Positions 2,979-53,278 of a stretch of 64,000 bases of DNA are shown one piece after another (the first letter of the stretch is position 1; every line of letters begins with the position of its first letter). The notes under the pieces were generated by a model. That model was given only the letters and a program-made list of their open reading frames with translations. It was not told where the DNA came from and did no database searches. Location of the stretch: IMG/VR virus record IMGVR_UViG_3300045988_112927, positions 56,519 to 120,518 of that record; one strand, given 5' to 3'. Made by a program: the position numbers and the translations under genes. Origin of the DNA: a virus.

Positions 2979-3920
2979 TTAGGCAAAGATTGTTCCTAAT
3001 CTGTGGTCAGCTAAACTCTCATCAGCAGAACCGATAATCTGGATAGCTGCAAGTACTTTCTTAGAGCGGTCAAATCTTGTATAATCTGGGAACGCATCCA
3101 TTGTGAAAGTAAATGTTGATGGGTCTCCTGAAGACGCCATAGTGAAAGTGAAGTTAGACTGAATCTTGCAGTTAGGAATGATGAATTCTGCAGGTAAATC
3201 TTTACCATCCTGAGTACGGAATAATGTAGAAGACTCTAAGTAGAAGTTACCACCGAACTTATCTGCTGTGATTTCAATCTGCTGTGCGCCACTCTTGTGC
3301 TCTACATAGTAATCAATAAGAACTGCATCAAACTGATTAGCTGCAGGTAATTTAACAGTAACATCATGCTCACCAGCATTACCGTGAACATCAGTAATAT
3401 TCTGGATACCTACTACGTTCTCTTTATCTTCCCAAGTAGCTTCAGAAAGAATAAATGGCTCAGAAATAATTTCACCATTCTTCATAAACATTGCATAAGC
3501 GTAGTTCTCAGCTTTGTTCTTTGGTAAATATGCTTTATTAGTTAAAGCAACCTTAATTACCCCGTCAGTAGAAGTATCACAGTCAACAACATCAACTGTT
3601 TCTGTAACATGCTGATATACTGGAGTATCATTACCAGCTTCTACTAAACCAGCACCTGAAAGAATCATGAATCCTTCTGGAGAAATAAGAGCATCTTCCA
3701 TAGTGAAGGTTACAGTTCTTTCACCTTCCCATGCAACCAAACGAGAATTACCACGACCACCTTGTGCATATACAGTAGTAGCAGCACCTTCCATGCTAGA
3801 AGTCTTTAAAGTATCGAAATAAATTACAGGCTCGTTAGGGTAGAATGTCTTATTACCAATCTTTTGAGTAGTCTTTGCTTTCAAAACTACGTCGCAAATC
3901 TCACGAACACCAAATTTCAT
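2979..3920 (-). CDS. putative major tail (tube) protein
   Basis: 313 aa, position upstream of chaperone-like genes and TMP, followed by strong terminator (high expression). Confidence 0.35.
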   Translation of the reverse strand: MKFGVREICDVVLKAKTTQKIGNKTFYPNEPVIYFDTLKTSSMEGAATTVYAQGGRGNSRLVAWEGERTVTFTMEDALISPEGFMILSGAGLVEAGNDTPVYQHVTETVDVVDCDTSTDGVIKVALTNKAYLPKNKAENYAYAMFMKNGEIISEPFILSEATWEDKENVVGIQNITDVHGNAGEHDVTVKLPAANQFDAVLIDYYVEHKSGAQQIEITADKFGGNFYLESSTLFRTQDGKDLPAEFIIPNCKIQSNFTFTMASSGDPSTFTFTMDAFPDYTRFDRSKKVLAAIQIIGSADESLADHRLGTIFA

Positions 3921-13621: not shown

Positions 13622-15342
13622 TCTTTAGCATTAAATTTCTTTTTCTTTTTCTTAGATTCTTCTTCTTGCTTTATATAATAAAGTCCGTATTCAAAAGCTG
13701 AGAATTTATCCTTTCGGATACCTTTATTTGCTTGTTTCAAAATGATATTTACGCCTTCATTTTCTTCTCGTAAGTTCATCATTTCCTCTTTTAATATGGA
13801 AGTTAGGGTAAATGGTTTTAAATATTCTGCCCTTTCTTCAGGTTTCATATTCTGACCTACCTTAGTTCCTAATAACTTTGTTTTAGCAACACGTTCATCA
13901 ATAAGGAATTTAATCTTACCAGAAGATAACTGCGACTGCGCATTTGCGTGAGCCTCAGTATTAATTGGCGCATTTGCTTTAATAATATAAATAGCATCCT
14001 GTTCGCAATTAGCTGTTTTATATTTCTTATAGAAACCTTCATCATCATTATAGATTCCGAAGTCTGGATAAGTATCTCCGGTTTCTGGGTCAATTTGTGG
14101 TTGAACCATATAATCAACTAATCCAATACCAAGACCGTTACCATCAATTACTAAGCGTCTTGCTTTATACTTATAATATAACTGTTTTAACTTAATAGCC
14201 TGAACACCAAAGTGTTCATCTGAGAAAGTATAAATATTAACAAGTGATTTATAAGCAGTACCCATTTGTTGTGGAGTAACCTTAAATATACAAGCTACAG
14301 TATCACAACCTTTACGTCCAATATCGGCTGAAATTACATAATAGCTTGCCGCAGATGACCTACCAGAATGCTCATGTTCAGGTTTTTGCAACTGTCTGTT
14401 GCGGTCAAAGATATCTCCACGGAAGAAAGCATCTGCAACTGTTCCAGTCCATTTACTTTCATATTCTCTATCGAATGAAGCTTCATTGAAAGTTCCATCT
14501 CGTTTTAAGTCTTGCAAGAAGTTTTTATCAAGCAATTTCATTAAAACAGGAATTCTCCAAGTTCCACCCATTACCATAGCTTTTTCCGGTTCAGTAATCA
14601 TCCAAACCAGTAGTTGAATTAATTTATCATAAGCAAAAGTATTTTTAAATCCAGCTGTTGTTACATAAATCTGCGATTTATTTAATGTCTCATCTGGTTG
14701 AGTAGTACCATCCATACATAAACGAGATACGTTCATAGTAGGAATAATAACCTGCGAAAGGATGTCTCCATCTACACCTACACACTCCTCTACCAGACCG
14801 CCATGTCTACGTTTACCTCTCGACTTCTCGGACGCCGCAATATTGTCGAAATAAGAACCATTCTTAAAGACATAGCATACATAGTCTTTACCTTCTCTAG
14901 TCTTACCCGGTCGTCTATCCAATTCACGCTCAAATGCCGGAACTAGAGTACATATTTCAGTAACTTTTTCTTTTACGATACCAGCAGCCTGTTCCTTACC
15001 ACCTGAAGTAACGAACAACTTACTTCTAGGATATAAGATACACCTACACATAAGTACCATAACAGATAAAAATGATTTTGAATACGCACGAGGGAATGTC
15101 ATATAAACATATTTATATCGCATCGCCGCACGTAAAAATACTCGTTGATAGAAATAGAATTTTAATTTCTTCTCTCTGGTAGGGTCTCCTCCATCTTGAA
15201 GAAAATCAACAAACATATCTGGATATTCACGCCAGTAAGCAATATACTGTCTTAAAGCTGGCTTGATAGCATCGATACGCTCTTCAGATAAACCAATCTT
15301 TTTTCTTTTAGTAGAAAGGTCTAATAAATCTTGTAAAGCCAT
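13603..15342 (-). CDS. terminase large subunit
   Basis: 579 aa, gene order HNH - Zn-ribbon protein - this - portal; size typical of TerL. Confidence 0.5.
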   Translation of the reverse strand: MALQDLLDLSTKRKKIGLSEERIDAIKPALRQYIAYWREYPDMFVDFLQDGGDPTREKKLKFYFYQRVFLRAAMRYKYVYMTFPRAYSKSFLSVMVLMCRCILYPRSKLFVTSGGKEQAAGIVKEKVTEICTLVPAFERELDRRPGKTREGKDYVCYVFKNGSYFDNIAASEKSRGKRRHGGLVEECVGVDGDILSQVIIPTMNVSRLCMDGTTQPDETLNKSQIYVTTAGFKNTFAYDKLIQLLVWMITEPEKAMVMGGTWRIPVLMKLLDKNFLQDLKRDGTFNEASFDREYESKWTGTVADAFFRGDIFDRNRQLQKPEHEHSGRSSAASYYVISADIGRKGCDTVACIFKVTPQQMGTAYKSLVNIYTFSDEHFGVQAIKLKQLYYKYKARRLVIDGNGLGIGLVDYMVQPQIDPETGDTYPDFGIYNDDEGFYKKYKTANCEQDAIYIIKANAPINTEAHANAQSQLSSGKIKFLIDERVAKTKLLGTKVGQNMKPEERAEYLKPFTLTSILKEEMMNLREENEGVNIILKQANKGIRKDKFSAFEYGLYYIKQEEESKKKKKKFNAKDWCFLN

Positions 15343-44448: not shown

Positions 44449-46032
44449 ATGTTATTAGCAAAGTTAAGTGAGAATGATAAATCAATGATGAAGAGCTGGG
44501 TTGATGACTATGCAGGTGGTCCCTCTAATAGAGGTGAGAGAGCATCTATTGACAGTCTGCTTCGCTATTGGAATAAGAGCAAGGAAAGACTCTTCAAGCT
44601 GTTAGGTGAGCAGTTTATTGTTAGTAAGAGTGTTTCTTTTGAGAAGCGTAAAGAGGATATGCAGGATGAGATTTATCACGCTATGCAGGATTCCAGCTCT
44701 GAAATGTTTGCTTTCGCAAGAGCATTTAGAAATTGGTGCTGGGATACTCCTGGTTTCGATTCTTACTGTGTTGATAAGTTGCTTGACTGCGAGATTCTTG
44801 CTGATAACGAGTATTATGGTTGCACTGTGGAAATCCCTCTTAAAGACGGTAAGAAACTTAAAGTACAGGGTGGCACTAAACCTTTAAGAGCGCTTGGCAA
44901 GATTGCGGCTGCTTATGACTTGCCTGGGTTTGAAGAGTTCCGTTTGGCTCACTCTCGTATCCTTAACCAGAAGAAGCTCTCTGGAGAACTCTGTCTTTCT
45001 ATTCATCCTATGGATTATATGACCATGAGTGATAATGAATGCGACTGGGACTCTTGTATGTCTTGGCGAAATGAGGGTTGCTATCGCCGTGGTACGGTCG
45101 AGATGATGAACTCCGACTGTGTTGTGGTGGCTTACCTCAAAGCCAAAGATGATATGCCTTATAGAGACTGGTACTGGAGCAATAAGAAGTGGAGAATGCT
45201 TATCATCGTTGATGAACAGTGCATCGCTGGTGTAAAAGGCTATCCTTATCAGCATAATGAACTTACTCAGAAATGCCTTGATTGGCTTGCTGAGTTAGCA
45301 ACAGAAAACTGCGGCTGGGAGTTTTGCTCTAAGAACCATGCTTATGATTACTCTGACCGAGTAGAAGATGAGGAAACTGGTCTTAAGCACAGAATGAACT
45401 TCACTACCGAGTATATGTATAATGACTTTGATACTTGTACTCATTGGATTAAGTTTGGTAAGAAAGCCAAAGAATATATTGACATCGAGTACTCTGGTGT
45501 TGCAAATTGTATGTTCTGTGGTGATATTCACTCTTTTGAAGATGAGGACGAGGCTTGTAGTTTGGTGTGCGAAGTATGCTGGGACACAGCATACTGCGAC
45601 ATTTGCGATGAAAGATATGAAAGAGCTACTATGTATGTGGTAGATGGAGAATATATCTGCGAGCATTGTTATGAATATCGCACTACTGAATGCCCTCTAA
45701 CCGAAGAGCTTCACCAGGAAAGAAATATGACAAGACTTTATCTCGCAAGAGGCGAGGAAGTAGACTTTGATACTGATAAGTATATTGAGGTTTATATGCC
45801 GGATGTTAGAGAAAAAGAGTGGATTGCAGAAAAATATTTCCCAAGAGCAGTAAGAAATTCGAGTGGATATGGTATTTTCCGCCATGCGGTTCGCAGATGG
45901 GAAGATGTGTACTGGGTAACCACAGAGGAATGTAGTGGTGAAGGCTTGAAACTCTTTGGATTAGAGAATCGTAAAGCCTTGGTAGAGTATAAAAGAGGCG
46001 GCGAAGCCAACTCTCTCTTAGCAGCGTTTTGA
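44449..46032 (+). CDS. large Cys-rich protein, paralog family member 1 (function unknown)
   Basis: 527 aa; shares SIHPMDY...W.SC...NKKWRML core with 48657..50051; C-terminal zinc-ribbon cluster. Confidence 0.45.
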   Translation: MLLAKLSENDKSMMKSWVDDYAGGPSNRGERASIDSLLRYWNKSKERLFKLLGEQFIVSKSVSFEKRKEDMQDEIYHAMQDSSSEMFAFARAFRNWCWDTPGFDSYCVDKLLDCEILADNEYYGCTVEIPLKDGKKLKVQGGTKPLRALGKIAAAYDLPGFEEFRLAHSRILNQKKLSGELCLSIHPMDYMTMSDNECDWDSCMSWRNEGCYRRGTVEMMNSDCVVVAYLKAKDDMPYRDWYWSNKKWRMLIIVDEQCIAGVKGYPYQHNELTQKCLDWLAELATENCGWEFCSKNHAYDYSDRVEDEETGLKHRMNFTTEYMYNDFDTCTHWIKFGKKAKEYIDIEYSGVANCMFCGDIHSFEDEDEACSLVCEVCWDTAYCDICDERYERATMYVVDGEYICEHCYEYRTTECPLTEELHQERNMTRLYLARGEEVDFDTDKYIEVYMPDVREKEWIAEKYFPRAVRNSSGYGIFRHAVRRWEDVYWVTTEECSGEGLKLFGLENRKALVEYKRGGEANSLLAAF

Positions 46033-48656: not shown

Positions 48657-50051
48657 ATGGTGGATATTAAAGAAATTCAAGCACAATTTAATAAGGTTAT
48701 AGCTTATTCTCAGGGAATTCCAGACCCTAAAACAGATGACTTATTTGAGCGTTGGTTAGAGGCTAAGCGAGACATTATTGAGGCGTTCGGCGGAGAATTG
48801 ATTTACACCGTACCTCAAAAGGTAAGTTTTGAGTTAAATCACAAAGAAAAGATGTTAAGAGTTAATGATTTCATTGAATCTGTTTCTGTTACTTGGGACA
48901 ATGAAGCATTGGCAGATTTTATTGACCTTAATAAAGAGAGTTTTTTCCAAAATATAGTCGAAAATGGAACTGTTCTTAGTGATAATACTAAAGTCCCAAA
49001 AGGAATGAAACTTGTTAAGGCTTTTAAGTTCTTTGAAACTGATAAAAATGCATTGAAAGAATTGCAGAATAAAGCAAGTATGATTATCCAAGAGGATAAA
49101 ATTGAAGGATATTTATGTTTTTCAGTTCATCCTTTGGATTTTTTATCCAGTAGCGAAAATACTTATAATTGGCGTAGTTGCCATGCTCTTGATGGCGAGT
49201 ATCGTTCTGGTAATATTTCCTATATGATGGATAAGAGTACAATTATGTGTTACTTAATAGGTGACAAAAATATGCATAAGTTGCCTAATTTCCCGGATGA
49301 AGTACCTTGGAACTCAAAGAAATGGCGTATGTTATTATTTTTATCAGATAACTGGAATGCAATGTATGCCGGAAGACAGTATCCATTTTTCAGTGATACA
49401 GCATTGGATTTAGTAAAAAAGAATATTTTATCGCCATTAAAATTGTCTGGTTATTGGAGTAATTGGCATAATGATGAGATTACTAACTATAAATTCAAAG
49501 GTGACGATGAGGAAAAAGATGATGTATATTTTGATAGAATCTATATCCCGATGAAAGGTAGATTATACAATAAGCAGGATTTAATTGAGGACGGCAAAAA
49601 TACAAATCATTTCAATGATTTATTGAGGTCTTCTTGTTATATTCCTTATTACTCTTGGAATAAACAGCATTGGAGGCAAATTCATTTTACTATTGGTGCA
49701 GAAGCTCCATGTATGTGTTGCGGCAAGAGTTATATAGCAGTAACAGATGAAATGCTTTGTACAGATTGTGAACTTGACCATGGTAATTCAGAAGATGAAA
49801 TGTTTACAACTTGTGATTGTTGTGGAAGAAGAATTCTTTACAATGAGTCTTGGTGCGTAGAACCTTCTGGAGAAACTGTCTGTGAATCATGTGCTGATTC
49901 TGAATGTAAGCATTGTGATTGCTGTGGTGAATTGTATTATAAGAGCGATATAAGGTATGACAGAGAGAATGGGGATTATAGATGTCCAAGCTGTCATTCA
50001 GATACTCGTAGAGAACAAGAAAATTTTATGCGTACAACATTTTTCATATAA
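48657..50051 (+). CDS. large Cys-rich protein, paralog family member 2
   Basis: 464 aa; SVHPLDF...W.SC...SKKWRML; many CxxC. Confidence 0.45.
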   Translation: MVDIKEIQAQFNKVIAYSQGIPDPKTDDLFERWLEAKRDIIEAFGGELIYTVPQKVSFELNHKEKMLRVNDFIESVSVTWDNEALADFIDLNKESFFQNIVENGTVLSDNTKVPKGMKLVKAFKFFETDKNALKELQNKASMIIQEDKIEGYLCFSVHPLDFLSSSENTYNWRSCHALDGEYRSGNISYMMDKSTIMCYLIGDKNMHKLPNFPDEVPWNSKKWRMLLFLSDNWNAMYAGRQYPFFSDTALDLVKKNILSPLKLSGYWSNWHNDEITNYKFKGDDEEKDDVYFDRIYIPMKGRLYNKQDLIEDGKNTNHFNDLLRSSCYIPYYSWNKQHWRQIHFTIGAEAPCMCCGKSYIAVTDEMLCTDCELDHGNSEDEMFTTCDCCGRRILYNESWCVEPSGETVCESCADSECKHCDCCGELYYKSDIRYDRENGDYRCPSCHSDTRREQENFMRTTFFI

Positions 50052-50388: not shown

Positions 50389-50547
50389 ATGGTAAAAGTA
50401 AAATTGATTTTTTATGCTCAATTTTGCGGGTATGCGGAACAGGTAGTTGAACTACCTGACGCAGACCCAGAGACAATTAAAGCAATTTTTCCGAAATATA
50501 TCGGAATACCTTTTGACGACAATTGCGACTATGAAATTTTGGATTGA
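50389..50547 (+). CDS. small hypothetical protein (52 aa)
   Basis: MVKVKLIFYAQFCGYAEQVVELPDADPE...; stop inside next -35. Confidence 0.3.
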   Translation: MVKVKLIFYAQFCGYAEQVVELPDADPETIKAIFPKYIGIPFDDNCDYEILD

Positions 50548-50572
50548 TTTTTCATAAAAATTTTGTTATAAT
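50544..50572 (+). promoter_or_regulatory. class-3 promoter
   Basis: TTGATTTTTCATAAAAATTTTGTTATAAT. Confidence 0.5.
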
Positions 50573-50617
50573 ATATATAGAAAAAATGATAAAGACACAT
50601 TCAGCAAACTTTTAATT

Positions 50618-50689
50618 TTTGAAATAGTCAAATGGATAAGACATAAACCTACCAAGTTTAAAATGCGGGTTCGATTCCTGCTTTCAAAG
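50618..50689 (+). tRNA. tRNA-like structure in mRNA leader (cloverleaf foldable, anticodon loop CTACCAA = ACC, atypical)
   Basis: Acceptor TTTGAAA/TTTCAAA, T-arm GCGGG-TTCGATT-CCTGC; flanked by AAAGACACATTCAGCAA ... TGTGTCTT long-range stem. Confidence 0.3.
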
Positions 50690-50722
50690 CCAAATTATGT
50701 GTCTTGTAAGGAGAAAGTTTTT

Positions 50723-50893
50723 ATGAAAGACGAAATCCTTGATGTTACTATGATAGTTGATGATGGTGATTTTGGAGATTCTACTGGACACTGTCCTACT
50801 TGTGGAGAAGTGTTTTATTTCCCTTTATTTTATAAAGGTAAGTGGTATCCATGTCGCCATTGTGGTCAGAAGATTTGGGTGAATAAAGAATGA
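50723..50893 (+). CDS. zinc-ribbon small protein (56 aa)
   Basis: ATG 50723 after AAGGAG; CPTCGE...CRHCGQ. Confidence 0.4.
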   Translation: MKDEILDVTMIVDDGDFGDSTGHCPTCGEVFYFPLFYKGKWYPCRHCGQKIWVNKE

Positions 50894-51006
50894 AAATTGC
50901 TTTAATATTAGGAATTTGCGGCGTTGCCGTTGTAGCGGTCGGATTAGTTAACGCAGTTATTGCCTTAATGAAGGTCCGCAAGATGCAAGAAAAAGATTTT
51001 TATTGA
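50890..51006 (+). CDS. small membrane peptide (38 aa)
   Basis: MKIALILGICGVAVVAVGLVNAVIALMKVRKMQEKDFY; ATGA overlap with upstream gene. Confidence 0.3.
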   Translation: MKIALILGICGVAVVAVGLVNAVIALMKVRKMQEKDFY

Positions 51007-51031
51007 TTTTTTATAAAAAATTTGATATAAT
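51003..51031 (+). promoter_or_regulatory. class-3 promoter
   Basis: TTGATTTTTTATAAAAAATTTGATATAAT. Confidence 0.5.
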
Positions 51032-51166
51032 ATATATGTAAGGTAAAGAAATAAAAATTTTCAGAAAAATCTTAGGACAAAGAAAGTTAAATAATTCTCT
51101 GGTTTTTTGATAATATATTACCTCACATAAGGCATCAACAGCAATTAACTGGAAAAGAGCCAAGCA

Positions 51167-51230
51167 GGTTGTCGTGGGTTCGAGCCCCACTCTGGCATGT
51201 ATTTGCTGGATAGCTCAGCTGGGAGAGCCC
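51167..51230 (+). pseudogene. tRNA fragments (3' T-arm/acceptor piece followed by 5' acceptor/D-arm piece)
   Basis: GTGGGTTCGAGCCCCAC...; GCTGGATAGCTCAGCTGGGAGAGC with no matching partner halves. Confidence 0.3.
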
Positions 51231-51380
51231 CCGCCAATATTTTCAAGATGCCTTGTTCTTCTCCGAAAAAAGGTTTGCAGTAGGTAAGTCCAAACCAGAA
51301 ACCTTGAGACCTATTAAGGGCAACAGTGATTGCGTAAGGCAACGATACACGCTGTTAGGGACTAAGAAAAAAGATTTTTA

Positions 51381-51409
51381 TTGATTTTTTATAAAAAAAA
51401 TGATATAAT
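51381..51409 (+). promoter_or_regulatory. class-3 promoter
   Basis: TTGATTTTTTATAAAAAAAATGATATAAT. Confidence 0.5.
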
Positions 51410-51444: not shown

Positions 51445-51771
51445 ATGAGTTCTCTTGGAAAGTGCTTTATATGGCTTGACGATGAAAGAGAAATAAATTG
51501 GTCTCGCGTTCCAGATGGTATGGCTGTTGTTCACGCTAAAACATATAAGGAAGCGATTGAAAAACTTTCCTTTTATATCGAGCGTAAGACGAAACTTGTT
51601 GTTGATTTCGACCATGACTTAGGTTGTAAAAGAACTGGTTATGATGTAGCCAAATGGATTATTGCTTCTGGTTATCAGAATGTAAGATTTAAGATTCATT
51701 CAATGAATCCAGTGGGAGCACAGAATATCAGAGAAATGCTTTTACATTACGGTTATGAGGAGATAAAATAA
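51445..51771 (+). CDS. receiver (REC)-domain-like protein
   Basis: IWLDDER, VVDFDHDLG, KIHSMNP resemble CheY-like acidic pocket/T/K positions; weak. Confidence 0.3.
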   Translation: MSSLGKCFIWLDDEREINWSRVPDGMAVVHAKTYKEAIEKLSFYIERKTKLVVDFDHDLGCKRTGYDVAKWIIASGYQNVRFKIHSMNPVGAQNIREMLLHYGYEEIK

Positions 51772-51777
51772 GAAATT

Positions 51778-51806
51778 TGATTTTTATAAAAAAATATGAT
51801 ATAATA
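51778..51806 (+). promoter_or_regulatory. class-3 promoter
   Basis: TTGATTTTTATAAAAAAATATGATATAAT. Confidence 0.5.
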
Positions 51807-51986: not shown

Positions 51987-52060
51987 TGGACCGTAGCTCA
52001 GCTGGTAGTAGCATCTGACTGTTAATCAGAGGGTCGTGGGTTCGAGCCCCACCGGTCCAG
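51987..52060 (+). tRNA. tRNA-Asn (GTT)
   Basis: Cloverleaf folded by eye: acceptor TGGACCG/CGGTCCA, AC stem TCTGA/TCAGA loop CTGTTAA, T-arm GTGGG-TTCGAGC-CCCAC. Confidence 0.7.
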
Positions 52061-52380
52061 CTCGCATTCTGGCTTCTCAATCTTGAGATTCTCGGCATGT
52101 GGATACCCACAGGCGGTATAGGTGAGCCTGGTGTTGTTACCATTTCGACATCACGGCAAATGGCGTTTGGGAGATTGCGGAGCGTGTGTTTCCTCACCCT
52201 GGTTTTCGGAAAACCTAAAAAGATGTCTGCATACGCCAGTAGAGAGATAAGTCGCATTGAGAGCTGGGAGTCTAAGATGCGGAAACCATGGTTGGGTTTT
52301 TCTTCATATTTGTGCCTCACTTCGGTCAAAACAAAATGAAGTTTTTGAAAAGTTTATCAGCGGTCTTTCAAAGTAAAATA
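52041..52380 (+). ncRNA. unassigned GC-richer non-coding stretch inside tRNA island
   Basis: 340 bp without ORF or recognisable tRNA; multiple short inverted repeats. Confidence 0.2.
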
Positions 52381-52860: not shown

Positions 52861-52889
52861 TTGATTTTTTCTTAAATTTTTGTTATAAT
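52861..52889 (+). promoter_or_regulatory. class-3 promoter
   Basis: TTGATTTTTTCTTAAATTTTTGTTATAAT. Confidence 0.5.
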
Positions 52890-53078: not shown

Positions 53079-53211
53079 CGCCCCAGTGGAGGTTAATAGG
53101 TACCTGCCCAGCCGGGAAGGCAAATCAAAAAACTTATGTGCTGATAAAGCTAATCAGCAACTCTCGAGAGAGCGGAGACGGGTGTATAGTTCAAAGGTAG
53201 AGAACACCGCG

Positions 53212-53278
53212 GGTACTGTAGTTTAATGGTAGAACACTTACAACTTAGGTAATATGGGTTCAAATCCCATCGGTACTT
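53212..53278 (+). tRNA. tRNA-like (anticodon arm irregular; preceded by duplicated acceptor/D-arm fragment at 53170-53210)
   Basis: Acceptor GGTACTG/CGGTACT, D-arm TAGTTTAATGGTAGAACA, T ATGGG-TTCAAAT-CCCAT; AC stem only 4 bp, no variable loop. Confidence 0.3.

Follow-up and report, generated by a model that had tools for sequence, protein, structure and literature searches.

The question raised by a 64,000-nt stretch of viral DNA (IMG/VR record IMGVR_UViG_3300045988_112927, positions 56,519 to 120,518; referred to here, at its full length, as the window) is why two of its tRNA-like cloverleaves are framed by one and the same pair of flanking sequences. A first-pass annotation had described the first cloverleaf, with the atypical anticodon ACC, as lying between a promoter and a Zn-ribbon gene, had noted the same leader and trailer around a tRNA-Asn at 62254, and had suggested either a conserved processing cassette of the RNase P or RNase III type or a tRNA-like element used as an mRNA 5' stabiliser or processing signal. 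We consider it likely that the framed elements are phage Y-RNA-like RNAs built on a new type of terminal handle and partnered, at the level of the family, with a divergent Ro60-like protein. The cloverleaf at 50618 is best described as the tRNA-scoring cargo of such a Y-RNA-like RNA.

The sharing of leader and trailer between the two loci is exact: the 17-mer AAAGACACATTCAGCAA occurs exactly twice in the window (50591-50607 and 62223-62239), and TGTGTCTTGTAA is found unchanged at 50698-50709 and 62331-62342. A degenerate third copy of AAAGACACATTCAGCAA, with three mismatches, lies at 63699-63715; allowing up to 3 mismatches, the chance expectation is 0.40 matches, and none of 100 shuffles gave 3. 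Both cloverleaves are called by ARAGORN and exceed the gathering score of 29 of the Rfam tRNA family (RF00005), reaching 62.5 bits for the first and 66.3 bits for the tRNA-Asn, respectively. The anticodon loop of the first reads CUACCAA, confirming the non-standard anticodon ACC with A34 that the first-pass annotation had given. The enclosing stem, which had been put at 16 nt, is shorter: pairing at the first locus is limited to AAGACACA(U) with (A)UGUGUCUU, that is, 8-9 bp, and the remainder of the leader, UCAGCAA, is unpaired. We refer to this arrangement as a handle. It is closed by a helix of 8-9 bp; on the 5' side a single spacer base separates the helix from an invariant, unpaired WCAGCAA box, and on the 3' side the helix strand is followed by G. 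The register is fixed, with an 8-nt 5' strand, one base, and then the box. The window contains four handle RNAs, all on the plus strand and all inside tRNA regions (Table 1), and three further handles follow just past the window end on the source contig. The two that are newly found carry other cargos: handle RNA 2 encloses a circularly permuted tRNA-like domain (T-arm, closed acceptor hairpin, D-arm), and handle RNA 4, laid out as AAGACAU-AU-ACAGCAA, a 43-nt cargo and AUGUCUU-G, encloses an AU-rich hairpin with a GGG loop, of a type that recurs in six other phage loci (L064, L073, L005, L026, L025 and L036). On RNA folding, the terminal helix is present in the minimum free energy and centroid structures of all four elements. 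As a separate observation, the 3' strand of the D-arm of cargo 1 (50638-50645) reads AAGACAUA, near-identical to the 5' strand of the handle, and the trailer could pair there (8 bp, one of them G-U); such pairing may reflect a second conformation, or may be coincidental in this cargo subfamily.

The handle is not confined to the window, and its flanks are not a local duplication. A scan of IMG/VR with the exact leader found non-coding copies with a matching trailer in other phages, and a slightly degenerate leader pattern gave at least about 50 phage loci with a complementary trailer; the degenerate pattern in 185,579 bacterial and archaeal genomes (one per species) returned essentially chance matches only. 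For the collected phage loci (given L numbers here), we scanned upstream of every WCAGCAA, combining a regular expression and pairing with controls. The sequence of the helix varies while its pairing is kept by compensatory and G-U changes, as in AAGGCACU/AGUGCCUU, GAGACGCA/UGCGUCUC, AAGACUCA/UGAGUCUU and AAGAUGCU/GGCAUCUU, the last with a U-G pair. For a test without selection on pairing, we took the 69 boxes with AAG at positions -9 to -7 whose stems were unlike the search pattern. A perfect 8/8 partner within 160 nt was present for 51% of these, compared with 2.3% when the 5' strand was shuffled, and pairing of at least 7/8 for 88%, compared with 38% in the shuffled control. The G directly after the 3' strand is found in 141 of 155 distinct modules. 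The outer helix pairs differ by clade (AAG/CUU, AGACC/GGUCU, UGGAC/GUCCA), and all clades share a helix of 8 bp, a spacer of one base, the ACAGCAA box and a G on the 3' side. AAG...CUUG stems that lack a box were also considered as members (55 found, 21.6 expected); because these mostly look like chance, the WCAGCAA box is needed to define the element. A tRNA ends 0-11 nt ahead of about 34 modules, and one begins 5-16 nt past the end of about 56, so that handle RNAs sit in arrays in the manner of tRNA genes.

The handle defines a widespread and apparently undescribed family of phage small RNAs. Rfam scans at gathering and E-value thresholds covered the window, five multi-handle loci and the intergenic region of Bacillus phage Tsamsa; they assigned no family to the flanks, and returned tRNA, sub-threshold YrlA and a single sub-threshold twister-P1 match only. 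The last of these, a type-P1 twister ribozyme match at L025 2327-2377 (41 bits, where the gathering score is 67; E 1e-5), falls within a tRNA array related to that of the window. In the literature available to us and in Rfam 15 we found no account of DUF2828 (the protein family discussed below) in phages, of the ACAGCAA handle, or of Y RNAs that carry tRNAs, which leaves room for an earlier description.

What the handle encloses is highly variable. In a census of 390 distinct modules across the collected loci, some of which are likely to be false positives, complete tRNAs in normal order and called by ARAGORN make up 20 (about 5%). The anticodons listed for them are Ile GAU, Lys UUU and Asn GUU (four each), Cys ACA (two), Tyr AUA, Gly ACC and Gly UCC, further ones being Leu UAA, Val GAC, Pro UGG and one uncalled. 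Another 29 modules have a T-arm followed by a D-arm, that is, a permuted tRNA-like cargo, 43 have a T-arm only, and 240 carry a short cargo of 13-75 nt without a T-arm. Cargos measure 13 to 165 nt overall, and their lengths have two peaks, at roughly 30-50 nt and 90-100 nt. Permuted cargos have a short loop between the 3' acceptor strand and the 5' one, and the two strands are paired, as in CAUAAC-GUAA-GUUAUG (L002) and UUUAUCA-GCCACUUAAUU-UGAUAAA (L005); because the acceptor strands of each cargo pair mutually, these cargos are not tRNA dimers. Some of the short cargos form a 5-bp stem with an anticodon-like loop of 7 nt, reading CUUUUAA (6-8 cases), CUGUUAA (3-4 cases), CUGCUAA, CUUAACA or CUUCAAA, and judging by these loops some short hairpins are apparent mimics of the anticodon loops of tRNA-Lys, tRNA-Asn and tRNA-Glu. 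Exchange of cargo is also seen at a single position: at the site in L008 that is orthologous to the tRNA-Asn of the window, the flanks enclose a tRNA-Ile(GAU). Two cargos called as tRNA-Ile(GAU), at L118 456-578 and L203 2645-2766, have a third topology. In these a hairpin, running from the 3' acceptor strand through GCCA and a loop to the 5' acceptor strand, comes ahead of the arms (D, anticodon, T), with the permutation point between the T-arm and the 3' acceptor strand. In L014, Rfam tRNA matches over the full model span 120-130 nt (634-763, 3661-3780 and 3789-3911), and these may be tRNAs with large insertions or halves of adjacent permuted elements that are joined by the model.

The permuted cargos connect the handle RNAs to YrlA, the bacterial Y RNA family (RF02553), and only members with such a cargo show Rfam similarity to it. 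Full-model matches score 32.1 bits in L010, 43.8 in L002, 38.4 in L109 and 33.5 in L025, and in the window 51138-51262 matches over the full model length with 29 bits (E 9e-5 in a 161-nt search). When L010 is aligned to the model, its handle occupies the place of the YrlA terminal helix. The YrlA-type order of V, T, closed acceptor hairpin and D between paired ends is found at 51127-51256 in the window, in L002, L005, L010, L025 and L109, and in phages FelixO1 and Snenia, and is absent from handle RNAs 1 and 3, which hold tRNAs in normal order. Handle RNAs resemble the YrlA/Rsr (Ro60) system (PMC4201824) in having paired 5' and 3' ends that form a closing helix, a conserved motif on the 5' side, a permuted tRNA-like interior, and genes located on the same strand as and near a Ro60-type ring gene, also in phages. 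They differ in that the motif is WCAGCAA, one base past an 8-bp helix, instead of GNCGAAN0-1G; in that a locus may hold several to eight copies; in their partner, which is DUF2828/DUF7788 and not a TROVE protein recognised by Pfam; and in that the cargo is exchangeable and includes complete tRNAs in normal order as well as hairpins of 20-50 nt. Both cargo topologies have precedents, since the tRNA-like arms of the Deinococcus radiodurans Y RNA follow the normal order and those of YrlA are permuted (PMC4201824). The D. radiodurans RNA, Yrn1, has the order D, anticodon-like, T, with a 5'/3' helix at the acceptor end, analogous to the enclosed tRNAs (PMC4201824), but has no acceptor stem of its own, no CCA and a Ro-binding helix similar to the metazoan one, whereas in the window elements a full acceptor stem of seven pairs is retained within the handle. 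Phages are already known to hold such systems: Ro60 orthologues adjoin YrlA-like RNAs in 22 phages (PMC4201824), and Ro60 of Thermus phage phiLo, for which structures have been solved (PDB 9KOP, 9L5Y), has two Y-like RNAs and forms a complex with host PNPase (PMC12135203). Like the handle loci, phiLo has a phage ring protein with Y-like RNA genes upstream, and its Ro60 is among the top structural matches to our DUF2828 model; unlike the handle RNAs, its RNAs were identified by CGAA in a large bulge with no tRNA cargo reported, and its protein is a recognisable Ro60 homologue.

Other small RNAs are less similar. Species 1 and 2 RNAs of phage T4 (rnaC and rnaD) are likewise small stable RNAs that are encoded in a tRNA cluster and released with tRNAs, and rnaC ends in a T-arm-like structure; having neither the ACAGCAA box nor a closing helix of the AAG/CUU type, they were rejected as kin of the handle RNAs. 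In Cyanidioschyzon merolae and some archaea, permuted tRNA genes have the 3' half first and a leader/trailer helix at the anticodon side, and mature via a bulge-helix-bulge motif, splicing endonuclease and ligase. The permuted handle cargos differ from these in that they have no bulge-helix-bulge, that the acceptor end is a closed hairpin in most, and that there is no sign of circularisation.

The second line of evidence comes from the genes next to the handles. A BLAST search with concatenated leader variants traced the leader to two groups of isolated phages, those of Bacillus phage Tsamsa and Staphylococcus phage SEP9. In Tsamsa, one handle follows directly after a promoter and a second ends 90 nt ahead of gp247; in SEP9, three tandem handles lie downstream of SEP9_126. 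Both genes are annotated as "RNA-binding protein", belong to PHROG 850, have the Pfam domains DUF2828 and DUF7788, and are closely followed by a gene for a calcineurin-type phosphoesterase. Using tblastn, we found a DUF2828 homologue within the few kb examined at 16 of 65 IMG/VR loci that had been selected by motif, always on the strand of the handle, with the nearest handle often only 16-100 nt away. For the reciprocal test we picked 80 IMG/VR loci on the basis of the protein only and included 3 kb to either side. Of these loci, 59 had one or more handles on the gene strand (about 135 handles in all), compared with 2 handles on the opposite strand and, as a control, 4 in 453 kb of unrelated bacterial DNA. 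The handles cluster immediately 5' of the start codon or 3' of the stop codon. The box itself shows a 4.8-fold higher frequency on the gene strand of these loci, and a perfect partner was found for 25% of gene-strand boxes (69 distinct perfect stems), against 4.7% for shuffled strands and 1% for the opposite strand. Given this extreme strand bias and the G-U pairs in the helix, the handle acts as RNA, on the tRNA strand.

By its predicted fold, the DUF2828+DUF7788 protein is a divergent relative of Ro60, with a HEAT-repeat ring and a C-terminal vWA domain. We modelled gp247 with AlphaFold (AF2) from a 36-sequence alignment (predicted local distance difference test score 77.7, predicted template-modelling score 0.66). 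The top five PDB matches of the model in Foldseek are all Ro60, aligned over the full length with E-values from 1.6e-6 to 1.3e-4: Xenopus (1yvr; the best, E 1.6e-6, template-modelling scores 0.58/0.54), Thermus phage phiLo (9kop and 9l5y), D. radiodurans (2nvo) and human (9nen). The vWA domains rank next, and some DUF2828 homologues have VWA_2 or VWA_CoxE matches. At the sequence level gp247 has no PDB match, and it has no Pfam TROVE match. The DUF2828/DUF7788 protein is found in 704 isolated phage genomes, among them FelixO1-like phages, Listeria P100-like phages, phages of Enterococcus, Staphylococcus, Campylobacter, Vibrio, Aeromonas, Sinorhizobium and Fusobacterium, Lak phages and mycobacteriophages, where it is already annotated as "Ro-like RNA binding protein". 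Three further isolates have ACAGCAA handles next to the gene: FelixO1 has four copies among its tRNAs, one of them with a YrlA-like cargo; in P100 there are three handles upstream of gp165; and in mycobacteriophage Snenia three handles lie downstream of the Ro-like gene, the middle one YrlA-like. In phage LeBron, the Ro-like protein, an RNA ligase and a polynucleotide kinase have been grouped as RNA-metabolism genes (PMC13148394). Between the two Tsamsa handles, upstream of the Ro-like gene, an intergenic stretch of about 310 nt (L191, 3680-3990) is GC-richer, contains many short complementary segments and has no Rfam match; it may be a larger structured RNA.

The identification as Y-RNA-like RNAs thus draws on direct observations of handle architecture, helix covariation, strand-specific gene linkage in other phages, a Ro60-like predicted fold and cargo modularity. 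Several points weigh against it. Folding z-scores are weak, at -1.1 to -2.1 relative to shuffles, so that support for the helix is comparative rather than thermodynamic. Every YrlA match, including those of 24-44 bits in relatives, falls under the gathering score of 69, and handle RNAs 1 and 3 give no YrlA match in the Rfam scan because their cargo is in normal tRNA order. The handle also has neither the GNCGAAN0-1G motif, the proposed Rsr site in YrlA (PMC4201824), nor the CGAA motif, the proposed Ro60 site in the phiLo Yrl RNAs (PMC12135203); the aligned position reads GACACAUU, and WCAGCAA follows two bases further 3'. The window has no DUF2828 or TROVE gene (Pfam on its 75 open reading frames, tblastn with two DUF2828 proteins), and no Ro-like gene was found in the 9 kb to its right or the 7 kb to its left, which brings the coverage to about 80 kb of the 190,234-bp genome. 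A cloverleaf of 62-66 bits could be excised by RNase P and serve in translation. Finally, we infer the expression and processing of these RNAs, the binding of the handle by the protein and the role of the cargo from comparative analysis.

In the model that we propose, the handle would be a docking module for the phage Ro60-like ring protein (DUF2828+DUF7788, PHROG 850), and the enclosed segment an exchangeable effector module. The RNAs would be transcribed alongside the tRNA arrays, from the repeated sigma-70-type promoters, and their ends would be fixed by the promoter or by RNase Z or RNase P cutting of flanking tRNAs. The helix would close and protect the ends and present the box to the Ro-like protein, and the cargo would engage factors that recognise tRNA, such as anticodon nucleases, repair enzymes or exonucleases. 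A more elaborate version, which we regard as speculative and rather unlikely in its full form, is a modular display, in which the Ro60-like ring would hold ACAGCAA handles bearing a panel of tRNA surrogates with diversifying anticodons. These surrogates would be whole tRNAs without aminoacylation identity, permuted bodies, and bare anticodon arms (Lys-UUU, Asn-GUU, Glu-UUC and others). The ribonucleoprotein would then be a decoy, sensor or repair platform against host anticodon nucleases or tRNA-targeting defences, and cREC and the phosphoesterase would process the cleaved ends.

Among explanations other than Y-RNA-like RNAs, the one that survives best, though we judge it improbable, is that the frame is a tRNA-precursor processing cassette, as the first-pass annotation had it. 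The helix would be a stalk from which an RNase III-like or other endonuclease excises selected tRNAs, as with the stalks that flank rRNAs, and the cargos would be ordinary decoders. The location of the elements in tRNA arrays fits this, as do the normal tRNA scores of both cargos and the CCA encoded in cargo 1, and the YrlA of Mycobacterium smegmatis is itself cut by RNase P and receives CCA (PMC4201824). The conserved cassette stands, given the recurrence of its flanks in many phages, but its role as an RNase P or RNase III signal is not supported: about 95% of the roughly 390 copies enclose non-tRNA or abnormal cargo, and in the window the frame is present on 2 of the 17 tRNAs called by ARAGORN and absent from the other 15. 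Typical RNase III substrates comprise about two helical turns. A long stalk of this kind (about 20 bp or more) is not found in the four window elements, whose helices measure 8-10 bp. A stalk would not be expected to have an invariant single-stranded box or to be linked to a Ro60-like gene, and the enclosed tRNAs duplicate free isoacceptors while lacking acceptor identity bases.

This last point concerns whether the two enclosed tRNAs decode at all. The acceptor end of cargo 1 has U1-A72, U2-A71, U3-A70, G73 and an encoded CCA, and is devoid of the set G1-C72, C2-G71, G3-C70 and U73 that we take to be the bacterial Gly identity set; cargo 3 presumably also lacks the acceptor-end identity bases for bacterial asparaginyl-tRNA synthetase. 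In the subfamily of cargo 1, the D-arm (GUCAARYGGWUAAGAC) and the body are conserved and the anticodon varies freely (UUU, UUU, ACA, CGA, UUC, UAA, UCC and ACC); the nearest relative of cargo 1 is a Lys-UUU version in L094. Cargo 3 is AU-rich, with U73 and no encoded CCA, whereas the free tRNA-Asn(GUU) at 51987-52061 is GC-rich and has G73; handle-enclosed orthologues of cargo 3 are found in L025 and L064, and the D, anticodon and T stems show compensatory changes among them. Because the same genome has this free tRNA-Asn(GUU) and a standard tRNA-Gly(GCC) just beyond the window, the enclosed copies would be redundant for decoding. Taken together, the sequences favour, without settling it, that the two enclosed tRNAs are probably mimics rather than decoders. 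The opposite proposal, which we rate as doubtful at best, is that they are genuine but caged tRNAs, including A34 species that read U-ending codons, which would be inactive in the Ro-bound handle and freed conditionally by RNase P or exonucleases, for instance after host tRNA cleavage. Complete cloverleaves with compensatory conservation across phages, the CCA of cargo 1, an AT-rich genome, and the recurrence of Lys UUU, Asn GUU and Ile GAU along with the A34 forms ACA, AUA and ACC speak for caging; the free variation of the anticodon on one conserved body in the cargo 1 subfamily, acceptor ends without the Gly and Asn identity sets, and the lack of any sign of release speak against it.

Very unlikely, in our view, is the other proposal of the first-pass annotation, an element of the mRNA leader that would act as 5' stabiliser or tRNA-like regulator of the downstream Zn-ribbon mRNA. 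Handle 1 does lie between a promoter and the ribosome-binding site of a small open reading frame, both of which we located where they had been described, and handle 4 also precedes a ribosome-binding site and ATG; however, in handle 3 and most copies elsewhere the next feature, 5-16 nt downstream, is a tRNA or another handle instead of an open reading frame, and SEP9, P100, L014 and L105 have tandem handle arrays. Least probable of all is a DNA-level element, that is, an inverted repeat marking a mobile or recombining tRNA cassette (integron-like or associated with homing endonucleases) or a retron-like a1/a2 frame with its branching G in the AGC of the box, for although cargos differ between identical flanks at orthologous positions (the tRNA-Asn of the window and the tRNA-Ile of L008), HNH and homing endonucleases lie nearby in SEP9 and the AGC is adjacent to the helix, the G-U (T-G) pairs would be A-C mismatches on the other strand, the strand bias given above is extreme, some cargos are just 20-30 nt long, no integrase or reverse transcriptase is linked to the handles, and no reverse transcriptase was found among the 75 open reading frames of the window (Pfam) or the annotated handle neighbours in Tsamsa, SEP9, FelixO1 and P100.

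If the Y-RNA-like reading is right, it bears on Ro/Y ribonucleoproteins, phage tRNA arrays and tRNA-targeting defence. How Ro60 and Y RNAs function is still little understood, and the Y RNAs of bacteria and phages are known mainly as one type, YrlA. The handle offers a simple searchable signature (8-bp helix, ACAGCAA, G) that ties hundreds of phages, including the tractable FelixO1, Listeria P100, Staphylococcus SEP9, Bacillus Tsamsa and L-cluster mycobacteriophages, to a divergent Ro60-like protein with a modular, multi-copy RNA partner. The cargos (real tRNAs, permuted tRNAs and anticodon-arm mimics) point to phage-host conflicts in which tRNA is targeted, and thereby make the role of a Ro-type ribonucleoprotein directly testable. 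For annotation, many "intergenic" stretches of phage tRNA arrays are probably small-RNA genes, and where a called tRNA has an odd anticodon (ACC, ACA, AUA), it may in some cases be Y-RNA cargo and not a decoder.

Table 1. Handle RNAs of the window, their parts and neighbouring features (window coordinates).
Feature	Position	Strand	Remarks
Handle RNA 1	50592..50706	+	encloses cloverleaf with anticodon ACC
Handle 1, 5' strand	50592-50600	+	AAGACACA(U); then box UCAGCAA 50601-50607 and 10-nt linker
Handle 1, 3' strand	50697-50705	+	(A)UGUGUCUU; preceded by AAUU linker 50693-50696, followed by G 50706
Cargo 1, tRNA-Gly(acc) by ARAGORN	50618..50692	+	CCA encoded; Rfam tRNA 62.5 bits over 50618-50689
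Handle RNA 2	51127..51256	+	newly found; permuted tRNA-like cargo
Handle 2, 5' strand	51127-51136	+	AUAAGGCAUC; box ACAGCAA 51138-51144
Handle 2, 3' strand	51247-51256	+	GAUGCCUUGU
Handle RNA 3	62224..62339	+	encloses tRNA-Asn; tRNA-Phe begins 8 nt downstream
Handle 3, 5' strand	62224-62231	+	AAGACACA; box UCAGCAA 62233-62239
Handle 3, 3' strand	62331-62338	+	UGUGUCUU; followed by G 62339
Cargo 3, tRNA-Asn(gtt) by ARAGORN	62254..62327	+	Rfam tRNA 66.3 bits over 62254-62326
Handle RNA 4	63700..63766	+	newly found; begins 2 nt after tRNA-Arg(ACG); precedes ribosome-binding site and ATG
Promoter-like site	50544..50572	+	sigma-70-type, TTGATT-17-TGnTATAAT; 19 nt upstream of handle 1
Zn-ribbon-like open reading frame	50723..50893	+	56 aa, CxxC...CxxC; ribosome-binding site AAGGAG 50708-50713, ATG 50723; directly 3' of handle 1
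cREC_REC gene (PF20274)	51445..51771	+	E 2e-20; between handle RNA 2 and tRNA-Asn at 51987

The source contig, k119_78680 of ENA ERZ27229705, is identical to the window across an 11.1 kb overlap and measures 190,353 bp with a 119-bp terminal overlap, suggesting that the genome is circular or circularly permuted and has about 190,234 bp. It belongs to an SPbeta-like siphovirus, with YonB, YonD, YomU, YomV and YomW families present; the terminases of large Enterococcus and Geobacillus phages share about 50% identity with that of this phage. No tRNA or RNA-binding protein gene is annotated in the first 50 kb of Enterococcus phage H1, the nearest isolate by terminase, and blastn of 49.5-52.5 kb against INPHARED gave tRNA-level matches only, with no close relative. 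The promoter-like site upstream of handle 1 is one of six near-identical sites (50544-50572, 51003-51031, 51381-51409, 51777-51805, 52861-52889 and 53835-53863). In these, TGnTATAAT is followed by ATATATG/A, and each site lies ahead of a small open reading frame, a handle RNA or tRNAs. The Zn-ribbon-like open reading frame is context, outside the RNA module. The family of the cREC_REC gene is predicted to process 2',3'-cyclic phosphates and is tied to RNA ligases in other genomes (PMC7824862); as a marker for handles it was set aside, the family being too widespread to inform.

Some further features of the region are worth recording. A 67-nt tRNA at 53212-53278 is recognised by Rfam (50.7 bits) and not called by ARAGORN, and overlaps a weak handle-like frame, UAAAGCUA-A-UCAGCAA ... 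UAGUUUAA, at 53145-53226. Directly upstream of the first handle lie two paralogous proteins of 464-527 aa (44449-46032 and 48657-50051; PHROG 18912, no Pfam match), whose C-termini are Cys-rich and Zn-ribbon-like. Between two tRNA blocks, two adjacent radical-SAM-like proteins (55996-58879 and 59143-61864; PHROG 1802) are followed by three proteins of about 300 aa with unassigned role, one of which has a weak peptidase U32 match, and this block may be a cassette for RNA modification or peptide maturation. The array continues past the window in L193, where a suppressor tRNA with anticodon TTA, which reads UAA, was called by ARAGORN at 14558-14630 (window-equivalent 67456-67528, just outside the window) and may be a sign of stop-codon suppression or recoding in the source phage. 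In the same continuation (L193 10897-19603, window-equivalent to about 63.8-72.5 kb), a gene for an nSTAND3/AAA ATPase and three genes of the PDDEXK_5 nuclease family are found among the tRNAs and handle RNAs.

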